Of a DNA stretch of 64,000 bases, positions 32,514 through 53,638 are shown one piece after another. The notes beneath the pieces were generated by a model that saw only the letters and a program-made list of their open reading frames with translations, had not been told where the DNA came from and did no database searches. The stretch spans positions 9,150-73,149 of the forward strand of contig DHGP01000018.1 in the NCBI GenBank assembly GCA_002402825.1, written 5' to 3'. The stretch's first letter is position 1. Each line of letters begins with the position of its first letter. The stretch comes from Firmicutes bacterium UBA4795 (GTDB lineage Bacteria > Bacillota > Desulfotomaculia > Desulfotomaculales > Nap2-2B). The position numbers and the translations under genes were made by a program.

Positions 32514-32690
32514 GTCGTCAGATGTCGGACGTCGGAAGACATCTAATGTACATTTTCGCAATTGATTTCTAACGTCTGACGACTGGCGACCGAATTTACG
32601 GACGGCAGTCATCAGGGTTATATGGTAGAAATTCGCTTTAGCAAACTCTATCTATTCTGACGTCTGACGTCTAACGACTGACGACCGAAT
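32514..32690. repeat. Heptamer-array elements, family C (GACGTCA-type), three copies in the mraY-murD spacer
   Basis: C1 is 32514-32543 (GTCGTCA GATGTCG GACGTCG GAAGACA). C2 (32568-32595) and C3 (32656-32690) are in inverted orientation (TCTGACGTCTGACGTCTAACGACTGACGACCGAAT). Confidence 0.85.
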
Positions 32691-32706
32691 GGGGAGGTAA
32701 TTTAAA

Positions 32707-34089
32707 ATAGGTAAAGTATTAGTAATCGGAGCAGGTAAAACAGGTTTGGCGGTAGCCTGGTTTTTAAACCGCAAAGGCATTGAGGTAGTGCTTACAGATA
32801 AACAAAACATTGCCCCAGATAAACTGGCTGCTTTAGAGGTCGTCGGTCGCCAGACGTCAGACGTCAGGGGGGACGCTGGCGTAAAGGTACATTTTCCTGA
32901 CTACCCCATAATCAAACCTGGCGATTATTCCCTGGTAGTGGTAAGCCCGGGAGTGCCGCTGGATATACCTCCGGTAGTTCAGGCTAAAAATTTAAATATT
33001 CCGGTTATAAGCGAACTGGAACTGACTTACTGGTACGCTTTAGCTCCTATTGTGGCTATTACCGGTACTAACGGTAAAACAACCACCACTAGTTTAGTGG
33101 GGGAAATTTGTAAAGACGCCGGTTTAAATACCCTGGTGGCCGGTAATATTGGCCTGCCACTAATAGCAAAAATAGAAAACTATACCACCCATGATCTCGT
33201 TGTGGCGGAAGTAAGCAGCTTTCAACTCGAAACAACTGTTTTTTTCCGGCCCCATGTGGCCGTCATCTTAAATATTTCGTCTGATCACCTGGACCGGCAT
33301 AAAACTTTAGCTAATTATACCGCTGCCAAAACAAAAATCTTTGAAAATCAAAAGGCAGGCGATTATACCATTTTGAATTATGATGATCCTTATACCCGAA
33401 GTCTGGCGAGTTATTCACCAGGAACAGTTATATTTTTTAGCCGTCGGCGTATTTTAGAAAAAGGGGTTTTTACGCAAAATGATTGGATTATCAGTAATCT
33501 TACCGGGAAAATAGAGCCCGTTTTACCGGTAAAAGAAATTCAACTGCCCGGTGCACATAACCTGGAAAACGTCCTGGCCGCTGCGGCCAGCGCCTTGGTT
33601 TTAGAAATTGAACCTCTGAAAGTAGCTAAAACTTTACGCCTCTTTAAAGGGGTAGCTCACCGTCTGGAATTTGTGGCTGAAATTAACGGGGTGCGTTATA
33701 TAAACGATTCTAAAGGAACCAACCCGGAAGCCAGCATTAAAGCCTTGGAAGCATTTGCTGCCCCCATTATTTTACTAGCCGGCGGCAAAAACAAAGGGAA
33801 TGATTTTACTGCTTTAGCGCAAAAGATTAAAGAAAAGGTCCGGGTATTGATTACCCTGGGGGAATGTGCCGGTGAACTAGAGAAAGAAACTAAACTGGCC
33901 GGGGTAGTTAAGGTAATACGGGCGCATGATCTAAGGCAGGCAGTTTTTTCAGCCTACCAGCTGGCCCAACCAGGGGAAGTAGTTTTATTATCTCCTGCTT
34001 GCGCCAGTTGGGATATGTTTCAAGATTACGTGGAAAGAGGCAACCTATTTCGAAAAACTGTTCTGGAATTTTCCGCCAAGCAATTATAA
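32707..34089 (+). CDS. murD: UDP-MurNAc-L-Ala:D-Glu ligase; probable non-canonical ATA start
   Basis: GTNGKTTT P-loop. The N-terminal Rossmann loop VIGAGKTG lies upstream of the first canonical start (TTG 32746). An in-frame stop is at 32698-32700, and SD GGGGAGG lies 9 nt before ATA 32707. Confidence 0.85.
   Translation: MGKVLVIGAGKTGLAVAWFLNRKGIEVVLTDKQNIAPDKLAALEVVGRQTSDVRGDAGVKVHFPDYPIIKPGDYSLVVVSPGVPLDIPPVVQAKNLNIPVISELELTYWYALAPIVAITGTNGKTTTTSLVGEICKDAGLNTLVAGNIGLPLIAKIENYTTHDLVVAEVSSFQLETTVFFRPHVAVILNISSDHLDRHKTLANYTAAKTKIFENQKAGDYTILNYDDPYTRSLASYSPGTVIFFSRRRILEKGVFTQNDWIISNLTGKIEPVLPVKEIQLPGAHNLENVLAAAASALVLEIEPLKVAKTLRLFKGVAHRLEFVAEINGVRYINDSKGTNPEASIKALEAFAAPIILLAGGKNKGNDFTALAQKIKEKVRVLITLGECAGELEKETKLAGVVKVIRAHDLRQAVFSAYQLAQPGEVVLLSPACASWDMFQDYVERGNLFRKTVLEFSAKQL
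32838..32867. repeat. Family C heptamer element copy C4 inside murD, in frame
   Basis: GGTCGTC GGTCGCC AGACGTC AGACGTC AG is the reverse complement of C3 at 27/30 positions. It encodes VVGRQTSDVR. Confidence 0.85.
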
Positions 34090-34110
34090 TTTTTTGGAGT
34101 CAAGGGTGAG

Positions 34111-35220
34111 ATGAGACATATAAAACAACCATCAGATTTTATTCTTTTTCTTACCGTGCTTATACTTTTAAGTATAGGAATTGTGATGGTATTTAGCGCC
34201 AGTTGTTATTATGCTATGTTTCCTCCTTTTAATAATCCTTACTATTTTTTTACCCGCCAGCTAATTTATGCTGGCCTGGGCTTGATTGTCTTGTTTTTTT
34301 TCTGGCACTATGATTACCAGCACCTTAAAAAATGGTCTAGTTTTTTATTGATTTTAGCCTTTATTCTTTTGACGGCCGTCTTAATTCCCGGCCTTGGGGT
34401 GGAAAAACTGGGTGCCCAGCGTTGGTTAAAAATAGGGTCTTTAAGTTTTCAACCTTCTGAATTGGCCAAACTTTGTTTGGTAATTTTTATGGCTTACGGC
34501 TTATCCCGTTACCCGGAAAAGGTGTTTAATTTTTGGCGGGGAGTTTTTCCTTACTTGTTAATTTTAGGCCTTGCCGCTGGCTTAATTATGAAGCAGCCTG
34601 ATTTAGGCACCACCGTGACCCTGGCTGGAACAGTCTTTATTATGCTCTTTGTGGCGGGAGCAAGGATTAAACACCTGGCGGCCCTGGTCACCTTGGGAAT
34701 AGGGGCAGTTGCGCTGGCAATATGGCAGGAACCTTACCGGTTGAAACGTTTTCTTGCTTTTTTGAATCCCGAAAAAGACCCAACCGGCAGCGGTTGGCAT
34801 ATTTTAAATTCCTTGTTATCTTTAGGCTCAGGGGGACTTTTAGGTACCGGCTTAGGTCAGGGACGACATTCCAAGTTCCTTTATCTGCCCATCAGGGAAG
34901 CAGATTTTATTTTTGCGGTAATTGGCGAGGAATTAGGCTTTATTGGCGCTTGTTTAGTTATTATCTTATTTCTTATTTTTATTTGGCGCGGTTTCAGAAT
35001 TGCTATTATTTCTCCCGACCCCTTTGGTAGCTTGCTGACCACAGGTATTGTTGGTGGTATTGCCATCCAGGCAATTATAAACATTGGGGTAGTAACCAGC
35101 ACCCTGCCTATTACGGGCATTACCCTTCCCTTTATCAGTTTTGGCGGCACCTCGCTGGTTTTTACGTTGGCCGGGGTAGGAATTTTGCTTAATATTTCCC
35201 GGCATACAAGGAGAGTTTAA
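34111..35220 (+). CDS. ftsW: SEDS-family peptidoglycan polymerase (FtsW/SpoVE)
   Basis: 10-TM SEDS protein located between murD and murG. Confidence 0.9.
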   Translation: MRHIKQPSDFILFLTVLILLSIGIVMVFSASCYYAMFPPFNNPYYFFTRQLIYAGLGLIVLFFFWHYDYQHLKKWSSFLLILAFILLTAVLIPGLGVEKLGAQRWLKIGSLSFQPSELAKLCLVIFMAYGLSRYPEKVFNFWRGVFPYLLILGLAAGLIMKQPDLGTTVTLAGTVFIMLFVAGARIKHLAALVTLGIGAVALAIWQEPYRLKRFLAFLNPEKDPTGSGWHILNSLLSLGSGGLLGTGLGQGRHSKFLYLPIREADFIFAVIGEELGFIGACLVIILFLIFIWRGFRIAIISPDPFGSLLTTGIVGGIAIQAIINIGVVTSTLPITGITLPFISFGGTSLVFTLAGVGILLNISRHTRRV

Positions 35221-35225
35221 GTAAA

Positions 35226-36344
35226 TTGAAAACACGATTTATTGTCAGCGGCGCCGGCACAGGGGGTCATATTTACCCTGCCCTGGCCATAGCTAAAGGC
35301 TTAAAAGAAAAATATCCGGGTTCAGAGATTCTCTTTGTGGGGGGTAGTTACGGCCTGGAAGGCAAGCTGGTTCCTCAAGCCGGTTTTCAATTAAAAATTA
35401 TTTCCGCCGCAGGTTTTAAACGTAAATTTACGCTGCAGAATTTAACTATCCTGGGAAAAGCAATTATATCACTTAGTAAGGCCTGGCAAATTATTCGCCA
35501 CTTTCGACCCCAGGTGGTAGTGGGTACGGGGGGCTATGTATGTGGTCCGGTAGTTTTAGCCGCAGTGTTATGTGGTATTCCCACCCTTATCCACGAACAA
35601 AATGCCTATCCCGGCTTAACCAGCCGCATATTAGCTTATTTTGCCCGGGGAATTGCCGTAACTTTTGCGGATTCAAAAAAATATTTTCCCCGTACCAAAT
35701 GGCTTGAGGTAACCGGTTTACCCGTCCGCTCAGAATTGGTAAATATGCAAATCCAACCGGAAGAGGCGCGCCAGCGGTTAGGCCTGCCCGTAAAAAAACG
35801 GTTGATTTTATCCTTTGGAGGAAGTCAGGGGGCCCAAAGTATTAACCGGGCCATGTTGCAATTGTTAAAGATTTTTCAAGCCAATAAAGAAGAGTATTTT
35901 TTACACGTTACGGGTCCCGATCAATACAAAGATTTTATAAATCAAGCCCGACGTTTAGGATTAAAAATGACGAATAATGGTAATATTACCATTGTACCTT
36001 ATCTTAATGAAATGCCCCTGGCCATGAAGGCAGCGGATTTAGCTGTTTGCCGGGCTGGTGCGTCAACCCTGGCTGAATTAACAGCGGCAGGTTTACCGGC
36101 TATTTTAATCCCCTATCCTTACGCCACAGGTAACCACCAGGAGTACAACGCCCGTTCAATAGTTAATCAGGGAGCCGCATTTTTAGTCCGGGAACAAGAA
36201 TTAAGCGGAGCAAAGCTGGCTGAAATAATAAGGATGCTTTTTAATTCCCCAGATATTCTTAGCTCCATGGCCTGGAGCAGTAAAAAAATTGGTCGGCCTC
36301 AAGCCTTGGCTGATATTCTAGAAATGATTGCGACCTTTATTTAA
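35226..36344 (+). CDS. murG: UDP-GlcNAc:lipid I GlcNAc transferase
   Basis: SGAGTGGHIYPALA N-terminal motif. TTG start. Confidence 0.92.
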   Translation: MKTRFIVSGAGTGGHIYPALAIAKGLKEKYPGSEILFVGGSYGLEGKLVPQAGFQLKIISAAGFKRKFTLQNLTILGKAIISLSKAWQIIRHFRPQVVVGTGGYVCGPVVLAAVLCGIPTLIHEQNAYPGLTSRILAYFARGIAVTFADSKKYFPRTKWLEVTGLPVRSELVNMQIQPEEARQRLGLPVKKRLILSFGGSQGAQSINRAMLQLLKIFQANKEEYFLHVTGPDQYKDFINQARRLGLKMTNNGNITIVPYLNEMPLAMKAADLAVCRAGASTLAELTAAGLPAILIPYPYATGNHQEYNARSIVNQGAAFLVREQELSGAKLAEIIRMLFNSPDILSSMAWSSKKIGRPQALADILEMIATFI

Positions 36345-36448
36345 TTATTTAATGGACAAGCTCATAATATTACCATTTTAACTTTATTAACACCTGGTTT
36401 GAAAAAAACATAAGATATAGAGGTTAAAACAAAAGGAGAGGAAAAATA

Positions 36449-37855
36449 TTGCCGGCAAAATTTGAACCCCTCAGACACGGCAAGAATCTGGTGCACTTTA
36501 TTGGTATTGGGGGCACTGGAATGAGCGGCTTGGCTAAAATCTTACTGGAGTTGGGCTTTTCAGTATCCGGCTCAGATTTAGTAGCCACTCCGGTTACCAA
36601 GCGGCTGGAAACTCTAGGCGCTACTTGCTACATTGGGCATGAGGCTAAAAATGTAACTAACCCAAGTCTAGTGGTAGTATCATCAGCCATTAAGCCTGAT
36701 AATCCAGAGCTCAAAACGGCGCAAAAAAGGATGCTCCCGGTGATCCACCGCAGTGAATTACTGGCCTACCTGATGGAAAAACAAAAAGGTATTGCCGTTG
36801 CCGGTACGCACGGTAAGACCACCACCACTTCTATGTTAGCTCTGGTTTTGGAGAAAAATGGCCTTGATCCTACCGTGGTGGTAGGAGGAGAATTAAGCGA
36901 CCTTGGAAGCAACGCCAAATTAGGGCAAGGTGAATACTTAGTTACCGAAGCTGATGAAAGCGATGGTTCTTTCTTAAAACTAAAGCCTGTCGCTTCCATA
37001 ATTACCAATATTGAAGATGATCATCTTGATTATTACGGAAATATAAGCAAAATAAAGGATGGTTTTAGCAAATTTATCTCCCGCACTACAGATACTGCAT
37101 TTGTATGTCTAGATGATCCCCAGATAATTGAAGTTATAAATAACTGTAAGCTTCCTTTAGTTACATACGCCATTAATAATCAAAGGGCTGATTATGTCTT
37201 GAAAAACGTTCACTTGAACCCTAAAGGTTCGCGGGGAGAGGTTTTTTACCACGGTCATTTGATGGGTTTACTTGAACTGGCTATTCCCGGACAACATAAT
37301 CTGCTAAATGCTTTAGCCGCCCTGGCCGCAGCACGTTGGGTTGGCCTTGATTTTGAACGAGTCGCCCTAGCCTTGCGCCATTTTTTGGGGGTAGGACGGC
37401 GCTTTCAGTTGCTTGGCGAGGTAAGGGGAATAAAAGTAGTGGATGATTATGCACATCATCCCAGTGAAATTAAAGCAACTCTGCAGGCTGCCAGGCAAAT
37501 AAAGCCCCAAAGAATAATCAGCGTATTTCAACCTCACCGTTACACCCGAACCTTGTTCCTGAGTGAACATTTTGGTTCTGCTTTTAAGCAAAGCGATTTA
37601 GTTATTGTAAGTGAAATTTACAGTGCGGGTGAAGCCTGTTTAAACGGGGTAAACGCCCAGTTAATTGTTAAAGCTATTTTACGGCAAGGCAATAAAGAAG
37701 TAAAATATATCGCGGACAAGAAAGAAATTGTCCCTTATTTAGCCGGGGTGATTAGACCAGGAGATTTGGTGATAACCATCGGCGCCGGCGATATCTGGAC
37801 TGTTGGCGAGGCCTTGGTAAAAAAATTAGGAGAGAAGCAACATGAACGCAAGTAA
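36449..37855 (+). CDS. murC: UDP-MurNAc:L-Ala ligase
   Basis: GIGGTGMSGLA and GTHGKTTTTSM. Confidence 0.92.
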   Translation: MPAKFEPLRHGKNLVHFIGIGGTGMSGLAKILLELGFSVSGSDLVATPVTKRLETLGATCYIGHEAKNVTNPSLVVVSSAIKPDNPELKTAQKRMLPVIHRSELLAYLMEKQKGIAVAGTHGKTTTTSMLALVLEKNGLDPTVVVGGELSDLGSNAKLGQGEYLVTEADESDGSFLKLKPVASIITNIEDDHLDYYGNISKIKDGFSKFISRTTDTAFVCLDDPQIIEVINNCKLPLVTYAINNQRADYVLKNVHLNPKGSRGEVFYHGHLMGLLELAIPGQHNLLNALAALAAARWVGLDFERVALALRHFLGVGRRFQLLGEVRGIKVVDDYAHHPSEIKATLQAARQIKPQRIISVFQPHRYTRTLFLSEHFGSAFKQSDLVIVSEIYSAGEACLNGVNAQLIVKAILRQGNKEVKYIADKKEIVPYLAGVIRPGDLVITIGAGDIWTVGEALVKKLGEKQHERK

Positions 37856-38810
37856 AAGCACAAGTGCAAGTAGGGACGGTTCTTCTTGCTTGCCTAATCG
37901 GGAGTTTAAAGCTGTCTATAAAGAATTAAAGCAGCTTTTGCCTGACCAGGTGCGCATACAAGAGCCAATGTCCCAACATACTACTTTTCGTATTGGCGGA
38001 CCGGCGGATATTTTAGTTGAGCCCCGCACAATAGCTGCTTTAAGGGAAACAATTTCTTACGCTAAAGTCAAAAATATCCCTGTCTTTGTTATGGGGGCCG
38101 GTTCCAACTTACTGATCCGTGACGGTGGAATCAGGGGCATGGTAGTAAAAATAGGTCGTCACCTGGCCAGGATTAAAATAGATGGCGTTGTGGTTATGGC
38201 AGAAGCAGGAGCAACCCTGTCACACTTAGCCCTGACTTGCTGTCAAGCCAGCCTGGCCGGTTTTGAGTTTGCCGTCGGCATCCCTGGAACAGTGGGGGGT
38301 GCAGTCGTAATGAACGCTGGGGCAGAAGGTCGCGCCATGAGTGATGTAGTGCAGGAAGTTCTGGTTCTTAACCAGAAAGGTTGTTTTGATCGGCTGAAAA
38401 AAGAGGATTTGGGATTTGGCTACCGGAGCAGTAATTTATTAGATCACAATCAGATAGTGGTAGAAGTAGTTTGCCAGGGAACACCTGATCAAAAGGAACG
38501 TATTCAGGAAAGGCAAAAAAAACATCTCCACCACCGGCAGAATACCCAACCGCTTATGTACCCTAACGCCGGCAGTGTTTTTAAAAATCCTCCTGGTTTT
38601 ACCGCCGGATACCTAATTGAACAGGCAGGAGCAAAGGGACGGCAAATTGGAGCAGCTAAAGTATCGTTAAAGCACGCTAATTTTATTATTAACTTAGGTA
38701 TGGCACGGGCCAAAGAGGTGCAAGATCTTATATCCCAGGTTCAAGAAATGGTGAAGCAACGCTTTGGCATCCAATTGGCCTTAGAGATTCAAATAGTCGG
38801 AGAGGATTAA
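37842..38810 (+). CDS. murB: UDP-N-acetylenolpyruvoylglucosamine reductase
   Basis: HTTFRIGGPADILV FAD-binding N-terminus. The first ~18 codons are an atypical low-complexity extension, and an alternative TTG start lies near 37887. Confidence 0.88.
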   Translation: MNASKSTSASRDGSSCLPNREFKAVYKELKQLLPDQVRIQEPMSQHTTFRIGGPADILVEPRTIAALRETISYAKVKNIPVFVMGAGSNLLIRDGGIRGMVVKIGRHLARIKIDGVVVMAEAGATLSHLALTCCQASLAGFEFAVGIPGTVGGAVVMNAGAEGRAMSDVVQEVLVLNQKGCFDRLKKEDLGFGYRSSNLLDHNQIVVEVVCQGTPDQKERIQERQKKHLHHRQNTQPLMYPNAGSVFKNPPGFTAGYLIEQAGAKGRQIGAAKVSLKHANFIINLGMARAKEVQDLISQVQEMVKQRFGIQLALEIQIVGED

Positions 38811-38820
38811 AAACAACCTA

Positions 38821-38925
38821 GTTAAGAGGTAAGAGGTGAGCGGTTAGAAGTGAGAATTTCATATCTCATTTTTCAGTTAAGAATTTTAATTCCCACTTCT
38901 GACTTCTTACATCCCACTTCTCAGT
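38821..38925. repeat. Heptamer-array inverted repeat, family D (AAGAGGT / AGAAGTG type), filling the murB-murA spacer
   Basis: The left arm is TAAGAGG TAAGAGG TGAGCGG TTAGAAG TGAGAAT. The right arm is ATTCCCACTTCTGACTTCTTACATCCCACTTCTC. The segment 38844-38857 pairs with 38889-38902 at 13/14 positions. Confidence 0.8.
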
Positions 38926-38940
38926 TAAGAGGTGAAAAAA

Positions 38941-40188
38941 ATGGCCAAGTTTATAATTACCGGTGGTAACCGCCTAAAAGGAACTATAACCGTAAACGGC
39001 AGTAAAAATGCTACCTTGCCTATATTAGCTGCCAGCATTCTAGCCGCTGGTGAATGTATTATTCACGAAGTGCCGTATCTGCAGGACATTACTACCATGA
39101 GCAATGTGCTGGAAACTCTGGGAGCAAAAGTCAAACGGGAAGGAACTACTTTAATTATAAATACCCGTGATATTTATAGTTGGGAAGTAGGAGAAAATTT
39201 AATGCGCCAAATGCGGGCTTCTAACTTGGTCTTAGGCCCTTTATTGGGACGCTTTAAGCAGGTAAAAATTTCTTACCCTGGTGGCTGTAATATTGGTTCC
39301 CGGCCCATGAACTTACATCTAAAAGGCTTAAGGGCCTTAGGGGCCGACATAAACGAAAGATACGGCTATATTAACGTAAAGGCCAAAGACTTAAAGGGAA
39401 CCGAAATACACCTGGATGTACCAAGTGTCGGGGCTACCGAAAATATTCTGATGGCGGCGGTAATGGCTAAAGGAGTAACTATAATTAGAAACGCCGCCAG
39501 GGAACCAGAAATAGTTGATTTACAGAATTTTCTTAACTACCTGGGGGCAAAAATCAGAGGGGCCGGAACAAGTTTAATTAAAGTTGAAGGGACTACCTCC
39601 CTGCATGAGGCCGAACATACCGTTATTCCCGACCGTATTGAGGCAGGTACATATTTAATTGGGACGGCAATTACCGGCGGAGACGTTACGGTAACCAACG
39701 TTATTCCGGAACATCTGGAATCACTACTGGCCAAGTTAAAAGAGATAGGGGTTAAGGTGGAGGTTAAAGATGAGGCCATAAACATAAGCTCAACTGGTTG
39801 CTTTAAAGCTACCAACATTAAAACAATGCCTTACCCTGGTTTTCACACGGATTTGCAACCCCAAATGATGGCCTTGCTGACCCTGGCCCAGGGAACTAGT
39901 GTAATTACCGAAACAATCTTTGAAAACCGCTACCAGCACGTTAGTGAGTTAAGACGCTTGGGGGCTGAAATTACCGTAGAAGGGCAAACCGCCATCATTA
40001 AAGGAGTAAAAAAATTAAGCGGGGCATCTGTAGAAGCAACTGACTTAAGGGCTGGGGCAGCCTTATTATTGGCTGCCTTGGCCGCGGAAAACAGTACGGT
40101 CATTGAAGGGGTGGAACACATTGACCGTGGTTATGAACAAATGGAGAATAAATACAATACTTTAGGAGCTAACATTATACGTGTTTAA
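38941..40188 (+). CDS. murA: UDP-GlcNAc 1-carboxyvinyltransferase
   Basis: MAKFIITGGNRLKGTITVNGSKNA N-terminus. SD AAGAGGTGA lies 5 nt upstream of ATG 38941. Confidence 0.92.
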   Translation: MAKFIITGGNRLKGTITVNGSKNATLPILAASILAAGECIIHEVPYLQDITTMSNVLETLGAKVKREGTTLIINTRDIYSWEVGENLMRQMRASNLVLGPLLGRFKQVKISYPGGCNIGSRPMNLHLKGLRALGADINERYGYINVKAKDLKGTEIHLDVPSVGATENILMAAVMAKGVTIIRNAAREPEIVDLQNFLNYLGAKIRGAGTSLIKVEGTTSLHEAEHTVIPDRIEAGTYLIGTAITGGDVTVTNVIPEHLESLLAKLKEIGVKVEVKDEAINISSTGCFKATNIKTMPYPGFHTDLQPQMMALLTLAQGTSVITETIFENRYQHVSELRRLGAEITVEGQTAIIKGVKKLSGASVEATDLRAGAALLLAALAAENSTVIEGVEHIDRGYEQMENKYNTLGANIIRV

Positions 40189-40298
40189 AGTTAAAATTTT
40201 TTTAACCTTATCTGGGACAAGTATTGTTTTGCTTTATTTTTTAAAAAATATATGATATAAGTTGCTTATGGATAAAACTTGATTTAAATACCGGATGA

Positions 40299-41159
40299 AT
40301 GAGGTTTTCAAGGAACAAACAACTAAAAAAATTTAAGTTAAACGCGGGAGAAAGCATATTTTTTATTTTCCTGGTTATTCTGGCGGCTTATATTTTCTGG
40401 CGGTCATCTTTATTTGAAGTTAAGGAAATTTTTGTCCAGGGCAACCATTCTTTAACCACCACCGAGATTGTAGCTTTATCCCGGATTAATGAGGGGACAA
40501 ATATTTTTAAAGTTAATTTATCCCAGGCAGGCGAAAGAATTAAGGCTCTGCCGTTGGTTAAAGAAGTGCATTTAACCCGTAAATTTCCTTCCCAAATAAT
40601 TATAGAAATAAAAGAACGCTACCCGGTGGCCTTGGTCCCGGTAAAGGGTGGTTTTGCAGAAGTAGATAGAGAAGGGGTATATTTAAGGCCAGGTAAAATA
40701 AGCTCTTCAGGACTGCCGGTAATAATGGTAACCAAAGAAAAAGCATCTAATGGTAGGTCAATCAGCGGCACAGGCCAAGGGCAGGCTTCGGGAAGGCAGG
40801 ATGCCTACCCTACAAGCCTACCTTCCCTTCAGCCTGTGGTTGACAGTAAACCGGCCCAAGCTCTTAAACCAGGGCAGGTTTTTGACTTTCCCGGGTTAAA
40901 AATTGCTTTAAAAGTAATTAATGCCTTGCCCCGCGAATTAATAACCAGTCTTTCCGAAGTTTACGTGGACAAACAAGGACAAATATTCCTTTACCACTTA
41001 AGCGGGGTAGAATGTCGCTTGGGTCAACCGGTAAATATAACTAAGAAGGGGATAATCCTTAACCAACTTTTTAGCCAGCTTAAAAACACGCGCCAGTTTG
41101 AATATATTGATATTTCCCTTGCCGGTTCACCGGTGGTAAAATATAAGGATGGTAAATAA
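40299..41159 (+). CDS. ftsQ: FtsQ/DivIB cell-division protein carrying a repeat-derived insertion
   Basis: N-terminal TM, a POTRA-like region (FEVKEIFVQGNHSLTTTEI), and the position after murA. Confidence 0.8.
   Translation: MRFSRNKQLKKFKLNAGESIFFIFLVILAAYIFWRSSLFEVKEIFVQGNHSLTTTEIVALSRINEGTNIFKVNLSQAGERIKALPLVKEVHLTRKFPSQIIIEIKERYPVALVPVKGGFAEVDREGVYLRPGKISSSGLPVIMVTKEKASNGRSISGTGQGQASGRQDAYPTSLPSLQPVVDSKPAQALKPGQVFDFPGLKIALKVINALPRELITSLSEVYVDKQGQIFLYHLSGVECRLGQPVNITKKGIILNQLFSQLKNTRQFEYIDISLAGSPVVKYKDGK
40782..40836. repeat. Family B element copy B1 (32-nt core plus inverted partial copy) in frame in ftsQ
   Basis: The core is CAGGCTTCGGGAAGGCAGGATGCCTACCCTAC (40782-40813). The arm 40817-40836 pairs back to 40782-40800 (16 bp with an internal loop). 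It encodes QASGRQDAYPTSLPSLQP. Confidence 0.85.
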
Positions 41160-41868
41160 AGCTATATTTAAAAATAAAAGTATTTACTTTATAATGGCTT
41201 TTATTGCGCTAAGCCTGGGTTTTATTTTTGCTTTGCAGTTTCGCACTAATACCATGGTTAAACAAAGTCCTCCCTTACAGCAAACACAAGAATTGGCGGC
41301 GCGTTTAAAAACTGCCCGGGAGGAAAATGAGGCTTTGCAAAACCGGGTGGATAAATTACGCCGGCAATTAGACCAGGTTACCGATAGCTTTTACTTAACC
41401 ACCCTGCACCAAGAATTAAGCAAAACCCGTATTGCGGCTGGAATGACGGAATTAACCGGTCCTGGAATAGAAGTTACTCTTAGTGACAGTAATAAAAAAA
41501 TTCAGCCTGGTGAAAATCCCAATCTTTATGTCTTGCACGATGAAGATATTTTAAAGGTTATTAATGAATTAAAGGCGGCCGGCGCAGAAGCTATAGCCCT
41601 TAATGGTCAGCGTCTTTTAGCCACCAGTGAGATTCGCTGTCTTGGTCCCACCGTGCTTACTAATAAAAATCAGCGGCTTACTCCTCCCTTTGTAATTACG
41701 GCCATTGGTAATCCTGGTAATTTGGTTAACGCTTTGCAAATGCGCGGGGGAATAGTGGATCAGCTTCGTTTCTGGGAAATTCAAGTAACGATTAAGTCTA
41801 TGCCCAATATTATTATACCAGCTTATACCGGCCAGTTGCGCTTTGATTACGCCAAACCGGTAAGTTAA
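41149..41868 (+). CDS. DUF881-family division-associated membrane protein
   Basis: N-terminal TM, a coiled coil, and TGPGIEVTL...DEDILKVINELKAAGAEAIALNGQR. Confidence 0.75.
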   Translation: MVNKAIFKNKSIYFIMAFIALSLGFIFALQFRTNTMVKQSPPLQQTQELAARLKTAREENEALQNRVDKLRRQLDQVTDSFYLTTLHQELSKTRIAAGMTELTGPGIEVTLSDSNKKIQPGENPNLYVLHDEDILKVINELKAAGAEAIALNGQRLLATSEIRCLGPTVLTNKNQRLTPPFVITAIGNPGNLVNALQMRGGIVDQLRFWEIQVTIKSMPNIIIPAYTGQLRFDYAKPVS

Positions 41869-41927
41869 CCGACGATTTTCGAATAACGAATTATAAATGG
41901 TAAAAAAACTGAAAAGGTGGGAATAAT

Positions 41928-42662
41928 ATGAACCAAAAATTATACCTTTCTGTTTTTTTAGTGGCCTTAATTATAGGTTTAATGGCGGCCTTGCAGTTCC
42001 GCACCACCAACTTTATAGAGCAAGGTGTTCCCCTTGGCCGATCCCAGGAATTATCCGTTGATTTAAACCAGTTAAATGCAGAGAAAAAACAATTGGAGAC
42101 AGAAGTTAAAGATTTAACGCAAAAAATTCAGCAGACCACTAAAGGACAGGCTTCGGGCAGGCAGGATGCCTACCCTACTTTGGCAAAAGAGGTTCTAGTA
42201 GGTGAATTAAAAAAAGCCCGATTAGGTGCTGGCCTGACCGCGGTATCGGGGCCGGGTATTGAAATAACCCTGGATAATCCTTCGGCTGAACAAAACAAAG
42301 GCCTGGAAGATACCATGTTTGCTATCCGGGATGAGGATTTACTGCACCTGGTAAACGAACTAAACGGGGCCGGAGCAGAAGCAGTGTCAATTAACGGACA
42401 AAGAATTCTGGCTACCAGTGAAATCCGTTGGGCCGCTCCTTTTATTAACGTTAATTTAACCAGAATAGCCCCGCCTTACCATATACTGACGATTGGTTCA
42501 CCCAAAAATTTAACCAGCGCTTTAGAAATATCCGGTGGATTGGCTGAATATTTACAAAGCCTTGGCGCGAAGGTAAAAATTCAACCTTATGAAAATTTAA
42601 CCGTTCCTGGTTATACCGCCCCAATTGAGTTTCGCTACGCCAAACCAACAAAAGGAGAGTAG
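41928..42662 (+). CDS. DUF881-family protein (paralogue) carrying a repeat-derived insertion
   Basis: SGPGIEITL...DEDLLHLVNELNGAGAEAVSINGQR. Confidence 0.75.
   Translation: MNQKLYLSVFLVALIIGLMAALQFRTTNFIEQGVPLGRSQELSVDLNQLNAEKKQLETEVKDLTQKIQQTTKGQASGRQDAYPTLAKEVLVGELKKARLGAGLTAVSGPGIEITLDNPSAEQNKGLEDTMFAIRDEDLLHLVNELNGAGAEAVSINGQRILATSEIRWAAPFINVNLTRIAPPYHILTIGSPKNLTSALEISGGLAEYLQSLGAKVKIQPYENLTVPGYTAPIEFRYAKPTKGE
42147..42178. repeat. Family B element copy B2 in frame in the DUF881 gene
   Basis: CAGGCTTCGGGCAGGCAGGATGCCTACCCTAC is 31/32 identical to B1. It encodes QASGRQDAYPT. Confidence 0.9.
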
Positions 42663-42667
42663 GTAAA

Positions 42668-43012
42668 GTGGGGATATTAGCCTGGGTAATAATTTTAGGA
42701 GGATTAGCCATTGGAGTATTGGTAGGTCTAAACGTTCCTTTTTTAATCCCTCAGCTATACGCTAAATATTTATCGGTAGCGATCCTGGCCGCTCTTGATT
42801 CGGTTTTTGGGGGCATAAGAGCAGCCATGGAAGACAGCTACGACAACACCATTTTCCTGACGGGTTTTTTCAGCAATGCCTTGTTGGCTGCTGGTTTGGC
42901 TTTTATCGGGGAAAGACTAGGCATGGATTTATATCTGGCAGCCGTGGTTGCTTTTGGTGTTCGTCTTTTTCAAAACCTGGCCATTATCCGGCGTCATTTG
43001 CTTAAAAAATAA
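42668..43012 (+). CDS. sbp: Small basic membrane protein (Sbp/DUF1290)
   Basis: 114 aa, hydrophobic, with C-terminal RRHLLKK. Has the conserved position after the DUF881 pair. Confidence 0.65.
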   Translation: MGILAWVIILGGLAIGVLVGLNVPFLIPQLYAKYLSVAILAALDSVFGGIRAAMEDSYDNTIFLTGFFSNALLAAGLAFIGERLGMDLYLAAVVAFGVRLFQNLAIIRRHLLKK

Positions 43013-43117
43013 CTTTTCTTTAAAAAAAGGAGAAACAATATAAATATTGAAATTAAGACTTAAATTAGGGTACTCAAAAAAAGCTTAAATTAATTTAACC
43101 AAAAGGAGGCTTAAGCT

Positions 43118-44170
43118 ATGATTGATTTTGAACTTGAGACAAAACAATTTGCCAATATAAAAGTTATTGGAGTAGGAGGAGGAGGCAATAATGCGGTTAA
43201 CCGAATGATTATCGGCGGTTTAAAGGGAGTTGAATTTATCGCGGTAAATACTGACGCCCAAGCTTTACAATTAACCCAAACGTTAAATAAGGTTCAAATA
43301 GGGGCAAAATTAACCAAGGGATTGGGGGCCGGCGGTAATCCAGAAATTGGTCAAAAGGCGGCTGAGGAAAGCAAAGAGGAGCTTAATCAGATTCTAAAAG
43401 GGGCTGATATGGTCTTTGTAACCGCCGGGATGGGTGGAGGTACGGGAACCGGGGCGGCACCAGTGATTGCGGAGGTAGCTAAAGAATTGGGGGTATTAAC
43501 CGTTGGGGTGGTAACCAAGCCTTTTACTTTTGAGGGGCGCAAACGGATGAATCAGGCGGAGATAGGAATTCAAAATCTTAAAGAAAAAGTAGATACCTTA
43601 ATCACTATTCCTAATGACAGGTTATTACAGGTAATTGATAAGCATACTTCTATCGTGGAAGCTTTTCGAATTGCCGACGATGTCTTACGGCAAGGCGTCC
43701 AAGGGATTTCTGATTTAATTGCGGTACCAGGGTTAATCAATTTAGATTTTGCCGACGTCAAAACCATCATGAAAGATACTGGTTCAGCACTAATGGGAAT
43801 TGGGGTGGCCAAGGGTGAAAACAGGGCCACTGAAGCAGCTAAAATAGCCATCTCCAGTCCGTTACTGGAGACCTCAGTAGAAGGAGCCAAAGGGGTTTTA
43901 TTAAATATTACAGGCGGAACTTCCCTAACTTTATTTGAAGTTAATGGCGCCGCAGAAATTATCTTCCAGGCGGCAGACCCGGAAGCTAATATTATTTTTG
44001 GAGCAGTAATTGAAGAAAACATGGAAGAAGAAGTCCGGGTTACGGTTATTTCCACAGGCTTTGACCAAAAAAGGGTAAAAAGAGAACGCATCCTGCCAGA
44101 GCTAGAAATAAAACCTTTTACCGACCATGAAGAACTAGACATTCCGGCCTTTTTACGCCGGCGCTATTAA
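43118..44170 (+). CDS. ftsZ: Cell-division GTPase FtsZ
   Basis: [13 protein letters not shown] and the tubulin signature [10 protein letters not shown]. Confidence 0.96.
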
Positions 44171-44185
44171 AAATGATTCTTTTGT

Positions 44186-45742
44186 TTATAACTTAAGTTT
44201 TATAAAAGAACGTAAACGGTTTAAATCGTAACTGTAAATACCGCCGGTAAGATATAAAAAGATAGAATAACATAGGGCCCCAATTAGCAAAAGATTAATG
44301 GTTTTAAAATTAGCTGAACCAAAAAAAACAGGCAGAAAAAGTTTCGTTTGCCAAATAACCAGGGCCATACCGGTTGAGGCCAAAAGAGGTTTAGCTACAC
44401 AGTAATTAAAATCAAGGGGTAAACGGACTAGTGTTTTTAAGTCGTAGTAGTTTAAACCGGCCAGAATAAAGTAGCTGATTAACATAGCCAGAACAGTTCC
44501 TTTTATCCCTAGTTGAGGCAGCGCCGTCAGATAATAAATACCGGTAATTTTAAAAGCGGAGGCAATTACCAGATTTTTAAGGGGGCGGGCGGCATATCCT
44601 AAGCCCTGTAAAATACCGGTAAAAGTCTGTTGGAGATATAAAAAGGGGCCTCCTAAAGCTAAAAGACCTAAAATAGCTCCTGCTGCTTCGTAGCCGTAAA
44701 ATAAAGCGCATAATTCATCAGACAACTGGTAAAATACAGCTACGGCGGGCAAACCCGTCAGCATGGTTACCCGTAAAGATTCTTCGATACGTGTTCGGAT
44801 AAGATAATGATCATTTTGAGCCGCAGCTTCACTTACGGCTGGAATCAAAGTAGTAGCCAGGGAAGCGGTAACAATGCTGGGTATATAAAGCAAGGACTCC
44901 GCAATACCGGTAAGCTGTCCAAAAACAGCGGTAGCCTGGGAATAGGTTAAGCCCGCCGTCTGGAGTCTACCGGGGATAAGCAAAGCTTCTATAGCCGAAG
45001 ATATAGTAGAAATAAAGCGAATAAAGGTTACGGGAATTGCGAGTTGAAAAATTTGCGTCAGCACGGTAAGAAGTTTTTCCGGTAAGAAAGGAATTGTTTT
45101 TTTAAAACGAGGCCGTCGGCGAACGTAGATATACAGCATCAGTAAAAAGCCCACAAATTCACCAATAACAATTCCTATCGCCAGTCCCATCACCGTGTAT
45201 TCAACCCCGTAAGGTAGCATAAAATAAGCAATAATTAAGCCGCTGGTTACTCTGACTAACTGCTCCACCACCTGGGTAACCGCCGTAGGGGTCATTTGTT
45301 GTAACCCCTGAAAAAATCCCCGGAAAGCGGAGCACAAGGAAACGATAAGCAAAGCAGGGGTGAAGCAAAAGAAGCTGTAGATAACTTTAGGATGGGCTAA
45401 AAAGTATTTTTGTAACCAGGGTACGCTGATCAAAAATAAAACGCTAAAAAACAAGCTGCTAAAAGTTAAACAAATAAGTGAGATATATAAAACGCGGTAA
45501 GCTTCCCGCAAATTACCACAAGCCGTCTTTTCAGCCACCAGTTTAGCTACAGCTACGGGGATACCGGCCGTAGCCAGAATTAAAGCAAGGACATAAATGG
45601 GGTAAATCATATTAAATAATCCTACCCCTTCCGGTTGAATGAGACGGAGCATTATAATTTGGTAAACAAAACCAATAAAATGATTAAAAAAACTGGCTAA
45701 AAGAAGAATTAAGGTGCCGCCAAGAAATGATTGCCGGGTCAT
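44186..45742 (-). CDS. spoVB: Stage V sporulation protein B (MOP/MurJ-type flippase)
   Basis: 518 aa, ~14 TM, with N-terminus RQSFLGGTLILLLASF..GFVYQI typical of SpoVB. Confidence 0.7.
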   Translation of the reverse strand: MTRQSFLGGTLILLLASFFNHFIGFVYQIIMLRLIQPEGVGLFNMIYPIYVLALILATAGIPVAVAKLVAEKTACGNLREAYRVLYISLICLTFSSLFFSVLFLISVPWLQKYFLAHPKVIYSFFCFTPALLIVSLCSAFRGFFQGLQQMTPTAVTQVVEQLVRVTSGLIIAYFMLPYGVEYTVMGLAIGIVIGEFVGFLLMLYIYVRRRPRFKKTIPFLPEKLLTVLTQIFQLAIPVTFIRFISTISSAIEALLIPGRLQTAGLTYSQATAVFGQLTGIAESLLYIPSIVTASLATTLIPAVSEAAAQNDHYLIRTRIEESLRVTMLTGLPAVAVFYQLSDELCALFYGYEAAGAILGLLALGGPFLYLQQTFTGILQGLGYAARPLKNLVIASAFKITGIYYLTALPQLGIKGTVLAMLISYFILAGLNYYDLKTLVRLPLDFNYCVAKPLLASTGMALVIWQTKLFLPVFFGSANFKTINLLLIGALCYSIFLYLTGGIYSYDLNRLRSFIKLKL

Positions 45743-45932
45743 ATTTAAGCCACCTCTTGTTATATTTATGATATTTTACCAGCTTGTATGTGATTTAAGC
45801 CTTTAAAATTGTTTTCTCGTCAGGACAAGGAGATTAGACTTTAATGTAGAATTTGTTTAATGATTATGGTATAAAAGTTGTGACAAGTATAAGCGTATAA
45901 ATAGCCAATTATCTGAAGGAGGCATAAAAATA

Positions 45933-47981
45933 TTGAAAAATTATCCCCGCGAAAAAATTCGTAATATTGGGGTGGTTGCACACGGGGGAGCGGGCAAAAC
46001 CTCCCTGGTAGAGGCCATGCTTTATAACACGGGAGCAATTACCAGATTAGGCCGGGTAGAAGATGGGACGACCACGGCTGACTACCACCCTGAAGAAATC
46101 AACCGTAAGGTAACTATTCACCTCAGCCTGGTACCTTGTGATTGGCAGGACTGTAAACTTAATATTTTAGACACCCCCGGCTACGCTGATTTTATAGGTG
46201 AAGTATACTCGGCTTTACGGGTAGTGGATACAGCCCTTTTTGTGGTTTCAGCCGTGGACGGCGTAGAAGTACAGACGGAGGTTATATGGGAATACGCGGC
46301 CCGGGCTGGTTTACCGGCCCTGGTATTTGTAAACAAAATGGACCGGGAAAACGCTAATTTTTTTAACGTCCTAACCGAATTAAAAGATAAATTAAAGGCT
46401 AATTTTGTCCCCGTTCAGCTTCCGGTTAGTCAGGCTTTGGGCAGTCAGGATGCCCACCCTACTGATTTTACTGGTATTGTTGATCTGATTACCCAAAAGG
46501 TCTACACATATCCGGATAACGGCAAAAGCCACCAAGAAATCCCGGTGCCTGATGATTTAAAAGAAACAATGGCCAGTTACCACGAAAAGCTAGTTGAAGC
46601 AGCAGTAGAAACCAACGATGAATTAATGTTAAAGTATTTAGAAGGGGAAGAGTTAAGTAATGAAGAAATAATTTTGGGCTTAAAAAACGGTATTGCCCAA
46701 GCCAAAGTGATTCCAGTGCTGTGTGGTACAGCCACTAAAAATATGGCGGTGATAAATTTAATGGATATTATTGCTAATTATTACCCGGCTCCGGCTCCAG
46801 CTAATGATGCTCCTTTTTCGGCCCTGGTGTTTAAAACCTTAGTTGACCCTTACGTAGGAAAAATGAACTTCATCCGGGTTTATACGGGAACGCTAAAAAA
46901 CGATATGCTGGTTTACAACAGCACCAAAGAAAAAACAGAAAAAATAGGTCAAATCCTTTATGTCCGGGGTAAAAACTCAGTCCCCACGGCAGAGGTATCG
47001 GCAGGAGATATGGCCGTGTTGGTTAAACTGCAACACACCGCTACTGCTGATACCCTTTGCGAAAAAGATAAGGGTGAAATATTGGAAGGGATTACCTTCC
47101 CAAAACCGGCTCTTTCCGTGGCTATTTCCCCCAAAAGTAAAGGGGATGAAGATAAATTAGGTAATGCCTTAAACAGGCTTTTAGAAGAAGATTTGACGGT
47201 GCAAATTGAAAAAAACCTGGAAACCAAAGAAAACATCCTTACGGGAATGGGTGAGCTACACCTGGAAATTATTCTAGAAAGATTGAAAAGAAAATACGGT
47301 GTCGATGTTTCCATGGAACCACCTAAAGTACCTTACCGGGAAACAATTCGTAAGACCGTTACCATGGAAGGCAAATATAAAAAGCAAACCGGCGGCCATG
47401 GTCAGTACGGGCACGTTTGGCTGCGCCTGGAACCATTGGCAGAAGGCGAATTTGAATTTACCGAAGAAATTTTTGGGGGGGCGGTGCCCAAGCAATATAT
47501 TCCAGGGGTAGAAAAAGGGGTCCGGGAATCTCTTACCGAAGGAGTGCTGGCTGGTTACCCGGTTACAGGAGTAAAAGTAGTCTTGTACGACGGTTCCTAT
47601 CATCCGGTAGACTCTTCCGAACTGGCCTTTAAAATTGCGGCGGCCATGGCTTTTAAAAAAGGGGTGCAAAATGCCGCCCCGGTACTGTTAGAACCAATTA
47701 TGTACGTTGAAGTAACCGTACCGGAGAACTTTATGGGTGACGTAATTAGTGATTTAAACACCAAGCGCGGCCGCATCCTGGGCATGGAACCAGCAGGCAA
47801 CAAAACAGTGGTCAAGGCAATAGCTCCGCTGGCTGAGTTAACACGTTACGCTATTGACTTAAAATCAATGACCCAGGGCAGAGGGTCCTTTGAAATGAAA
47901 TTTAACAACTACGAAGAGGTTCCGGCCCGCCTGGCAGAAGAAATAATTAAAAAAGCCAAGGAGACAACCAACCAGCAGTAA
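45933..47981 (+). CDS. Elongation factor G paralogue (EF-G2-like) carrying a repeat-derived insertion
   Basis: G1 AHGGAGKTS, G3 DTPGYADF and G4 NKMD, with domains II-V present. TTG start. Confidence 0.85.
   Translation: MKNYPREKIRNIGVVAHGGAGKTSLVEAMLYNTGAITRLGRVEDGTTTADYHPEEINRKVTIHLSLVPCDWQDCKLNILDTPGYADFIGEVYSALRVVDTALFVVSAVDGVEVQTEVIWEYAARAGLPALVFVNKMDRENANFFNVLTELKDKLKANFVPVQLPVSQALGSQDAHPTDFTGIVDLITQKVYTYPDNGKSHQEIPVPDDLKETMASYHEKLVEAAVETNDELMLKYLEGEELSNEEIILGLKNGIAQAKVIPVLCGTATKNMAVINLMDIIANYYPAPAPANDAPFSALVFKTLVDPYVGKMNFIRVYTGTLKNDMLVYNSTKEKTEKIGQILYVRGKNSVPTAEVSAGDMAVLVKLQHTATADTLCEKDKGEILEGITFPKPALSVAISPKSKGDEDKLGNALNRLLEEDLTVQIEKNLETKENILTGMGELHLEIILERLKRKYGVDVSMEPPKVPYRETIRKTVTMEGKYKKQTGGHGQYGHVWLRLEPLAEGEFEFTEEIFGGAVPKQYIPGVEKGVRESLTEGVLAGYPVTGVKVVLYDGSYHPVDSSELAFKIAAAMAFKKGVQNAAPVLLEPIMYVEVTVPENFMGDVISDLNTKRGRILGMEPAGNKTVVKAIAPLAELTRYAIDLKSMTQGRGSFEMKFNNYEEVPARLAEEIIKKAKETTNQQ
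46431..46462. repeat. Family B element copy B3 (diverged) in frame in the EF-G paralogue
   Basis: CAGGCTTTGGGCAGTCAGGATGCCCACCCTAC is 29/32 identical to B2. It encodes QALGSQDAHPT in the same frame as B1 and B2. Confidence 0.8.
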
Positions 47982-48016
47982 CTACATTTTACAATAAAAA
48001 AGGATTATAAAATAAA

Positions 48017-50372: not shown

Positions 50373-50421
50373 CCTTTCCCCCTAACCCCCTCCCCTTGAA
50401 GGAGGGGGTTAGGGGGAAAGG
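50373..50421. repeat. Perfect 21-bp-stem palindrome in the argJ-argB spacer
   Basis: CCTTTCCCCCTAACCCCCTCC-CCTTGAA-GGAGGGGGTTAGGGGGAAAGG. The outer TCGAAAAA/TTTTTCGA are also inverted. Confidence 0.95.
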
Positions 50422-52564: not shown

Positions 52565-52574
52565 AGTTAAAATT

Positions 52575-52602
52575 GTAGGGGCATATAGCTATACGCCCCT
52601 AC
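52575..52602. repeat. Family A REP between argD and argF
   Basis: GTAGGGGCATAT-AGCT-ATACGCCCCTAC with one mismatch, and an AAAATTGTAG left flank. Confidence 0.9.
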
Positions 52603-52620
52603 AGAGAAAGGAAGGACAAT

Positions 52621-53590: not shown

Positions 53591-53618
53591 GTAGGGGCGT
53601 ATTGCTATACGCCCCTAC
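53591..53618. repeat. Family A REP between argF and argG
   Basis: GTAGGGGCGTAT-TGCT-ATACGCCCCTAC, perfect stem, with the same AAAATTGTAG left flank. Confidence 0.9.
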
Positions 53619-53638
53619 ATTGAAAGGGGTTTAAAAAA

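Follow-up and report, generated by a model that had tools for sequence, protein, structure and literature searches.

In-frame insertions of GTAG-headed REPs, and probably unrelated intercistronic hairpins, in the division and cell wall gene cluster of a Firmicute

The 64-kb stretch of Firmicutes bacterium UBA4795 analyzed here (contig DHGP01000018.1; below, the window) carries a Firmicute-type division and cell wall (dcw) gene cluster at 24.3-47.9 kb, between a heme operon and an arginine operon. The cluster runs mraZ, mraW, ftsL, a penicillin-binding protein gene, murE, murF, mraY, murD, ftsW, murG, murC, murB, murA, and ftsQ and continues with two DUF881 genes, a DUF1290 gene, ftsZ, a murJ-like gene on the other strand, and a paralogue of elongation factor G (EF-G). 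An earlier note on this DNA had described the cluster as a hotspot of several families of short repeats and had ascribed them to one diversified system of repetitive extragenic palindromes (REPs) and a REP-associated tyrosine transposase (RAYT). We examined these repeats, termed families A to D, together with a CAAGT patch. The reading that we consider probable is that two unrelated kinds of small element are present: families A and B would be REPs of the kind associated with RAYT subclass 2.4, and families C and D would be intercistronic hairpins.

The organism is an uncultured, Peptococcaceae-like Firmicute, and the window sequence is known from metagenomes only, as JGI contigs from three samples and as Logan contigs from hydrocarbon and oil-facility runs. 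Sampling of relatives was centred on murA, and comparison was made with the two closest, congeneric genomes: L005, a single-cell assembly named Peptococcaceae bacterium SCADC1_2_3, and L025, named Firmicutes bacterium UBA2203. MurA of both is 93% identical to that of the window, the next relatives reaching 66 to 70%. Nucleotide identity to the window over 21 kb of colinear DNA is ~92% for L005 and ~88% for L025, and the tree was therefore read as ((window, L005), L025). Copy numbers were taken from Logan contig depth in metagenome runs, among them X1, X2, and X3. A related strain co-occurs in X1 at ~7x depth and is seen as a contig joint that skips family D. At 39819-41430, contigs of X1 with the window allele have a depth of ~8.4 to 8.9 versus ~17 elsewhere, which suggests a second strain that differs across murA-ftsQ.

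A search with a 32-mer (at most 3 mismatches) found three copies of family B, at 40782-40813, 42147-42178, and 46431-46462, all on the plus strand; shuffled sequences gave an expectation of 0. As the earlier note had claimed, all three lie within open reading frames (ORFs), in one frame and one orientation, reading GQASGRQDAYPT, GQASGRQDAYPT, and SQALGSQDAHPT (…GRQDAYPT or …GSQDAHPT). The repeated unit, TTCGGGCAGGCAGGATGCCTACCCTAC, is 27 nt long, or nine codons. In ftsQ, a long form with its GTAG head on the minus strand (40775-40825) makes up a 51-nt in-frame insertion encoding QGQASGRQDAYPTSLPS; it carries an added outer stem around the 27-nt unit, forms a nested double hairpin (-15.9 kcal/mol), and is spanned by independent Logan and JGI contigs. 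The second DUF881 gene contains the B core (42151-42177, minus strand), a 27-nt in-frame insertion of 9 codons (the SGRQDAYPT stretch) with a hairpin of -8.2 kcal/mol. In the EF-G paralogue, an older copy (46431-46462, minus strand) adds a net 24 nt, encoding LGSQDAHP, and the stem of the window version is decayed.

Each of these sites is empty in at least one congeneric genome. The ftsQ insertion (17 codons) is filled in the window and empty in L005 and L025, and the DUF881 insertion is filled in the window and empty in L005, L025, and seven outgroups. The EF-G insertion is shared by the window and L005 and is lacking in L025, while a further copy of 27 nt at the 3′ end of murD (…SASSRQDAYPTKQL followed by the stop codon) is present in L005 and lacking in the window and L025. 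The empty sites are clean in three-way alignments, and all insertions leave the reading frames intact. Those in ftsQ and DUF881 lie in low-complexity linkers, and the EF-G paralogue exceeds solved EF-G structures by 8 residues, at the PIG…F(T/S)GI loop. With the empty congeneric sites taken as proof, the B copies in genes are recent in-frame insertions in the style of the Rickettsia palindromic elements (RPEs), and the earlier suggestion of RPE-like palindromic insertions in housekeeping genes is thereby upheld. FtsK of a more distant relative also has a 27-nt B-like insertion (locus L210, 2066-2092), which occupies a loop in the membrane domain at its N terminus and is read in another frame than the window copies (HSYEQAGSL; YEQAGSLPY).

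Two types of REP are associated with subclass 2.4 of the TnpAREP (RAYT) transposases: a "double foot" (5′ GT[AG]G, 3′ C[TC]AC) and a canonical long type with three G-C pairs at the base of the stem (PMC6006769). Family B is of the canonical long type. On the minus strand it reads GTAGGGTAGGCATCCTGCCTGCCC, which resolves into GTAG-GGTAGGCA-TCC-TGCCTGCC with GGG/CCC at the stem base; after the GTAG head, the 9-bp stem opens with three G-C pairs and contains one conserved C·A mismatch. The core was then sought in metagenome contigs, where at least 120 stretches carry it; they come from unrelated organisms, and none from the window's genome is among the matches listed. The B core is thus not lineage specific, and its REP class spans phyla. 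Among 125 distinct metagenomic copies of this class, stem position 5 covaries (G-C in 50 and A-T in 47), and the C·A mismatch at stem position 4 is kept in 97, as expected for a structure that an enzyme recognizes. At eight loci from such unrelated organisms (L098, L154, L185, L196, L095, L096, L107, and L125), a larger inverted repeat (TAGACATCTCC AAAAATC … TTTTTGGAGATGTCTA) encloses the REP core, at times within tandem arrays with 31- or 43-nt units, giving a composite REP-bearing element. A protein search with a 53-residue concatenate of the B-encoded peptides gave no match at E values up to 10.

Family B is repeated many times beyond the window. The summed depth of contigs with the B core was 810 versus 17.5 for the flanks in X1, 351 versus ~7.5 in X2, and 266 versus ~6.5 in X3 (596 and 287 with the ftsQ copy as the reference). 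At the DUF881 copy, the core is 41 to 47 times as deep as the flanks; over all estimates, B is at 35 to 47 times the depth of single-copy flanks, and the core was carried by 22 to 32 contigs with differing flanks. Allowing for the co-occurring strain, this corresponds to roughly 30 to 45 copies per genome equivalent. One B copy elsewhere in the genome, seen at loose contig ends, adjoins a (CGAACCT)n heptamer array. Within the window, 11450-11850 holds a fragment of an IS3-type OrfA followed by a (TTCGAGG)x3 array (11826-11845) complementary to (CGAACCT)n.

It can be read directly from the sequence that the reverse orientation of B would place the TAG of GTAG in two of the three frames. The bias of B in both frame and orientation can thus be explained by selection, the favored frame being hydrophilic and rich in Gly and Pro. 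Of the 125 metagenomic copies of this class, 42 fall in stop-free stretches of at least 200 codons, a crude measure, since high-GC DNA yields spurious open frames. The QDA(H/Y)PT frame is used by 17 of the 29 same-orientation copies within long open stretches, which for the same reason is suggestive only. The left-junction targets that could be resolved are ACAGGC, ACAGGC, TCA(A/G)GC, and TCCGC, each directly preceding the insertion; two B insertions lie at the identical heptamer ACAGGCT, and CAGGC also occurs inside the element. The CAGGC junction could reflect a fixed target of 4 to 5 nt, as is typical of Y1 enzymes, or microhomology.

A candidate enzyme is encoded in the window. The gene at 16594-17184 (plus strand) matches PF01797 and has the motifs NHIHG (the HUH motif; H81 and H83), WQ within FWQRAYYEH, and the catalytic Tyr Y174 in EYIINNP, which aligns with the catalytic Y115 of E. 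coli TnpAREP (4ER8). Against the NCBIfam model NF047646 (REP-associated tyrosine transposase), it scored 75.7 bits, split over 2 stretches, the cutoff being 80. The motifs NH[IFV]H, WQ, and YIxNNP are those tabulated for TnpAREP subclass 2.4, equivalent to Group 4 of Bertels et al. (Table 1 of PMC6006769), to which we assign the protein. This subclass is described as frequent in Cyanobacteria, Bacteroidetes, Chlorobia, and Caldilineae, with scattered occurrences in other classes (PMC6006769; Bertels et al. 2017, bioRxiv 10.1101/119735). The RAYT looks intact and, by analogy with its family, may bind, cleave, or mobilize its REP.

Family A is of the double-foot type, GTAGGGGCGTAT..ATACGCCCCTAC (GTAG…CTAC), and counts 10 half-sites in 6 REPs versus 0.54 expected. 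One copy (GTAGGGGCGTATGGCCATACGCCCCTAC, 16861-16891) lies in frame within the RAYT ORF itself, where it encodes CRGVWPYAPT (residues 90-99) and can form a perfect DNA hairpin (-14.5 kcal/mol; z = -5.8). RAYT homologues named from Anabaena, Nitrospirae, Deltaproteobacteria, and others conserve the peptide RGV[LW][QP]YAPT, so the embedded REP is an old family trait rather than a recent event, and REPs inside tnpAREP genes have been published (PMC6006769). A second copy (4611-4640), whose second foot has decayed, provides hemC, on the minus strand, with its final ~12 codons and its stop region (4604-4640; …SRGVWPYAWQK and stop) and shares its reading frame with the REP embedded in the RAYT gene. 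The contention that repeats of the flanking operons occur only between genes fails on these two copies. Two more copies (14965-15045) lie between an hsdR fragment and hsdS, 1.5 kb upstream of the RAYT gene, and the remaining two are in the argD-argF spacer (52574-52603) and the argF-argG spacer (53591-53620). Logan contig depth, read at this last copy, places family A at 7 to 17 times single copy. A scan of the window found no family A copy downstream of the RAYT gene before 52574, and the 10 kb recovered beyond the left end of the window contained no copy of family A or B; for the protein at the right end, no record was found from which to extend the sequence. The RAYT locus (14073-18648) is a decayed type I restriction-modification system, with a C-terminal hsdR fragment (14638-14955), an intact hsdS (15087-16529), hsdM split into two ORFs (17193-18035 and 18193-18648), and a PIN-domain gene (14073-14426).

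Families C and D differ from these elements: neither has a GTAG head, and the inverted arms of both are made up of degenerate 7-nt units (TCTGACG; TAAGAGG/GTGAGAA). Family C gave eight matches to GACGTCTGACG (at most 1 mismatch), all within 32516-32865, versus 0.11 expected. The four copies reported previously, one of them in the murD coding sequence (CDS), were recovered as three spacer blocks and one inverted unit within murD (32514-32868). The blocks, degenerate (TCTGACG)n on the plus strand of the mraY-murD spacer, lie at 32514-32550, 32569-32593, and 32656-32688, and the first two pair as a hairpin. The unit in murD (32836-32868, plus strand) is a 33-nt in-frame insertion encoding VVGRQTSDVRG that is present in the window and L005 and lacking in L025; domain 1 of MurD is 13 residues longer than that of E. 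coli MurD. Over 30 nt, the murD unit is 90% complementary to 32657-32686, and this pair brackets the ribosome binding site (RBS) and start of murD; the whole C region folds with a z of -6.4. Of the three genomes, the window alone has the upstream blocks, which match the murD unit in inverted orientation; we read them as later inverted copies, since L005 shares the murD unit and lacks the blocks. The long-range helix was considered as a conserved regulator of murD and rejected, as L005 retains the murD copy without the upstream arm. Family C was also considered as a CGTC-type REP and rejected against the published definition (8- to 9-bp stem starting AT, 4- to 5-nt loop, CCA tail; PMC3733652). 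In X1 to X3, C is at single-copy depth and occurs only on the contig of its own locus. C-like arrays are multicopy in other community members of run X9 and are found upstream of murC in more distant relatives (L008 to L010).

The start of murD, which lies between the C blocks and the murD unit, is itself unusual. No canonical start codon is present at 32691-32748, where an in-frame stop lies at 32698 and the first TTG at 32746, downstream of the Rossmann motif VLVIGAGKTG (aligned to E. coli MurD residues 8-17). An ATA at 32707 follows the RBS GGGGAGG at a distance of 9 nt, and L005 and L025 both retain it; an AUA start of murD is likely.

The family D array at murB-murA, also noted before, is present with a period of 7 and an inverted partner. 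It is a hairpin insertion (38831-38933, plus strand) of ~92 nt plus an 11-bp direct duplication of AGTTAAGAGGT, whose two copies (38820-38830 and 38923-38933) include the murA RBS. The period-7 array (38823-38848) and its inverted partner form a 130-nt spacer hairpin (-36 kcal/mol; z = -3.7). Family D is absent from L005, L025, and the co-occurring strain (joint 38810>38938), and it is single copy, with imperfect inverted arms, in 4 metagenomes. The program TRF reported a period of 7 at 32656-32683 (4 copies), 32851-32867, and 38823-38848. C and D are thus not genome-wide families in this organism; each is confined to a single locus. The CAAGT patch (37845-37875, plus strand), which had been put forward as a further array, overlaps the murC stop and murB start and amounts to low-complexity N-terminal murB codons: CAAGT occurs three times within 30 nt, the patch exceeds that of relatives by no more than a few codons, no structure is predicted for it (z = -0.16), and TRF did not report it. 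We do not count it as a meaningful repeat. No hairpin in this study matched an Rfam family.

Comparison of the three genomes showed that hairpins turn over rapidly at the junctions of these operons. Directly past the stop codon, the mraY-murD spacer holds a different hairpin in each genome: (TCTGACG)n in the window, (GGCACAAA)3…(TTTGCCAC)3 in L005, and (GGAGGTT)n…(AACCTCC)n in L025. L025 has a second GGAGGTT hairpin at murD-ftsW, at the same spot as the B copy of L005. In the relatives, arms of the GGCACAAAG type are the 40-nt terminal inverted repeats (TIRs), made of 8-nt repeats, of a ~300-bp element with the ends GTAACTA(T/C)TCAGG…CCTGAGTAGTTAC and, on some copies, ~8-bp target duplications. 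With its TIRs, target duplication, and multiple copies, it qualifies as a MITE, a miniature transposable element with inverted repeats, and it always holds the first 58 codons, the 5′ half, of a PF05635 four-helix-bundle (23S intervening sequence [IVS] protein) gene. It is found at ftsZ-murJ in L005, at murG-murC and between the two DUF881 genes in L025, at argJ-argB in the relative L205, and elsewhere. The window, its C spacer included, contains no PF05635 remnant detectable by tblastn, matches being confined to L005 and L025. The argJ-argB spacer likewise holds three elements in three strains: a perfect, G/C-rich 21-bp hairpin in the window (50373-50421; CCTTTCCCCCTAACCCCCTCC and its complement), the MITE in L205, and a family A REP in the co-occurring strain (at loose contig ends). 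A 46-nt stretch at the EF-G 3′ end and argC spacer (47963-48008) occurs only in the window, alters the C terminus of EF-G, and contains GTAACTAC, the tip of the terminal repeat of the relatives' MITE.

Repeat elements account for at least 11 of the ~14 indels of 9 nt or more over the 21 kb compared. The repeat-borne indels all lie between mraY and the EF-G/argC junction, and none is in murE-murF-mraY. In long operons, the spacers between genes thus serve repeatedly as places where hairpins of several classes land or are built. As for the dcw region being a repeat hotspot, an assumed 40 B copies in a genome of 3 to 4 Mb gives ~0.7 copies expected in 64 kb versus 3 seen (Poisson P of ~0.04 under those assumptions); genomes of relatives measure 3.0 to 4.9 Mb (PMC6776889). 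Given three copies in 64 kb, their clustering within 5.7 kb has a P value of ~0.02. The evidence for a hotspot, with P at ~0.02 to 0.05 by our own estimate, is only suggestive.

Taken together, these data fit a probable scheme in which B units insert recently and independently into coding DNA, and in which the insertions that survive would be those that add whole codons, in the orientation that avoids TAG and mostly in the frame (S)GRQDA(Y/H)PT, to loops and linkers of FtsQ, DUF881, the EF-G paralogue, and MurD. By analogy with its family, the RAYT would mobilize B (and A) through single-stranded DNA. Insertion would occur just 3′ of CA(G/A)GC or CCGC; targeting of CAGGC would fit the sequence-specific targeting of Y1 HUH enzymes, and microhomology would yield the same pattern. 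C and D would be hairpins of fast turnover, one 33-nt C unit having apparently become an in-frame insertion in murD, and would probably act on the operon mRNA as processing or stability hairpins.

Several points weigh against this scheme. The REPs do not immediately flank the RAYT gene as in a REPtron; the closest are at 14965-15045, with hsdS between. The RAYT of the window is physically associated with A and not with B, and the analysis turned up none that is specific for B. For all B copies, positive GC skew identifies the GTAG strand as the template of the leading strand, while targeting of the lagging strand predicts otherwise; for copies inside genes, however, selection against TAG would impose the same orientation anyway. 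The depth-based copy number is an upper bound, as co-occurring relatives in the same metagenomes also carry B, and the statement that B colonizes coding DNA rests on five or six events, mostly around one locus. Finally, C and D may have arisen either as mobile elements or by duplication and inversion in situ.

The last point leads to an alternative that we regard as possible, though we would not expect it to hold: the C and D hairpins would be immobile RNA structures, generated locally and selected, that each lineage builds from its own spacer and that act in intercistronic processing, stability, or translational coupling. D is unique in four metagenomes, and its heptamers (TAAGAGG…) are similar to the target at the murA RBS, of which a copy stands at either end. 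C is found at one locus, with an arm that pairs with the murD copy around the RBS, and both the mraY-murD and argJ-argB sites hold three different elements in three genomes. Against local generation, the GGCACAAAG- and GGAGGTT-type hairpins of the relatives are dispersed and multicopy and have defined ends and, in some cases, target duplications, which argues that at least part of the C/D-like class is mobile; nor does any Rfam match speak for a selected RNA.

Unlikely, in our judgment, is the proposal that the B insertions arose with no transposase, by template switching during replication. A nascent strand ending in CAGGC would mispair with the CAGGC of a distant B, copy ~27 nt, and return. 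This would account for the CAGGC(T) common to target and element at the left junctions in FtsQ, DUF881, and EF-G and for the varied insert lengths (24, 27, and 51 nt), and the upstream C blocks, as inverted matches of the murD unit, are a typical product of such switching. The return microhomology, however, is only 1 to 2 nt; four genes of three genomes contain the 27-nt unit with identical ends; and its REP class is spread over phyla together with subclass 2.4 RAYTs. Insertion 3′ of a fixed target of 4 to 5 nt is, moreover, established for Y1 enzymes of the IS200/IS605 family (PMC6006769).

The single REP/RAYT system of the earlier note, in which A, B, C, D, and CAAGT would all derive from one RAYT-mobilized REP lineage, now appears very improbable. 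All are short, prone to form hairpins, and co-located, and the distant B copy beside a heptamer array shows that both kinds can be neighbors. However, C and D have neither a GTAG nor a CTAC head and consist of tandem units of 7 nt, C and D occupy single loci whereas B is present 40-fold, C falls outside the definition of CGTC REPs, and CAAGT is unstructured. The equivalents in relatives are TIR elements with ~8-bp target duplications, unlike the signature of a Y1 HUH enzyme. What stands of that proposal is the part concerning A and B, which are GTAG hairpins of both published types alongside a subclass 2.4 RAYT; the inclusion of C, D, and CAAGT as diversified members does not. That an assembler wrongly joined repeats into genes is scarcely credible: Logan contigs do break at the B core, a repeat that confuses assemblers, but the JGI contigs of three samples yield identical translations, the FtsQ insertion is spanned by Logan contigs (and one 1,681-nt contig of X2 spans both B copies), all frames are intact, and the EF-G and murD copies recur in the separately assembled single-cell genome L005.

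Within the favored scheme of subclass 2.4 REPs alongside intercistronic hairpins, the A/B elements resemble the TnpAREP subclass 2.4 systems (Quentin et al. 2018, PMC6006769; Bertels et al. 2017, bioRxiv 10.1101/119735) in the motifs of the RAYT and in both REP types. They differ in that the host is a Firmicute of the class Clostridia, the RAYT gene has no directly flanking REPs, and B lies mainly inside essential genes in the region sampled. The earlier note overstated the novelty of such insertions. GTAG and CGTC REPs have been described in frame in genes of Opitutus, Thauera, Xanthomonas, and Rickettsia (RPE-4 and RPE-6) (Di Nocera et al. 2013, PMC3733652), and in-frame REPs, including REPs in tnpAREP, were noted by Quentin et al. 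too (PMC6006769). Shared with these intragenic REPs and with RPEs are the short palindromes read in frame in housekeeping genes, the 8 to 30 added residues tolerated in loops, and the differences in presence between related genomes. RPE-4 and RPE-6 are CGTC tagged and RPE-1 is much longer, whereas B has a GTAG head and a 27-nt unit. The genes of the 2013 study act mostly in DNA replication and repair in Proteobacteria, Verrucomicrobia, and Rickettsia, whereas those reported here serve the cell wall, division, and translation in a Firmicute; the word "Firmicutes" is absent from the main text of PMC3733652 and PMC6006769. The intragenic REPs of this cluster thus extend a phenomenon known from other phyla.

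The hairpins with heptamer arms are harder to place. Cyanobacteria reportedly carry short tandemly repeated repetitive (STRR) heptamer arrays and small dispersed repeats, said to be the subject of work by Mazel in 1990 and by Elhai et al. in 2008 (Genome Res 18:1484) and cited in PMC5861425 and PMC4692102. C, D, and the relatives' hairpins are like STRRs in being intergenic, degenerate 7-nt arrays that vary in length and sequence between close relatives and sometimes adjoin very small mobile repeats; they differ in phylum, in forming hairpins from inverted pairs of arrays at intercistronic junctions, and, in this genome, in being single-locus rather than genome-wide. The ~300-bp element of the relatives resembles MITEs in its TIRs, target duplications, and choice of the same kinds of spacer, and its layout of a long stem plus an ORF recalls 23S rRNA IVS cassettes, although insertion into rRNA is not involved, the window has no detectable element of this type, and D has an 11-bp duplication but is single copy. 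The heptamer-arm hairpins resemble STRRs and MITEs without belonging firmly to either, and they are the part of the locus most likely to be hiding something new. We raise tentatively, as a somewhat speculative idea, that junctions of essential operons (mraY-murD, murD-ftsW, murB-murA, and argJ-argB) are served by an unrecognized class of hairpins with short-tandem-repeat stems, with species-specific units at the same site and, in some cases, a PF05635 fragment. If so, the class would be either a mobile cassette, directed by site or by structure and related to the intervening sequences of rRNA, or the product of a process that generates hairpins in situ, and either origin would shape expression of the division operon.

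Two features of the window outside the cluster are recorded here. A tRNA-Sec gene (8614-8711) and a cobalamin riboswitch (8823-8955) lie in the spacer upstream of succinyl-CoA-ligase-like genes. A 21-nt in-frame tandem repeat at 55067-55203 (6.5 copies, 96% matches), within the ORF 54969-55655, encodes repeated KEFKDEM heptads of a coiled-coil-like protein.

The value of this locus lies in an unusually clear series of empty and filled sites in essential division genes, with a defined 27-nt unit. Congeneric genomes that differ by whole-codon REP insertions in FtsQ, DUF881, EF-G, MurD, and FtsK offer a clean natural experiment, and the unit, together with its candidate CAGGC target, provides concrete substrates for RAYT assays. 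The same repeats cause breaks in annotation and assembly in metagenome-assembled genomes of hydrocarbon-degrading Peptococcaceae. The less understood part, how quickly spacer hairpins of the dcw and arg operons are replaced, could bear on the tuning of operon mRNA. For the organism, the insertions indicate that a subclass 2.4 REP system has been recently active in a Firmicute and that its essential division proteins tolerate 8 to 17 added residues.

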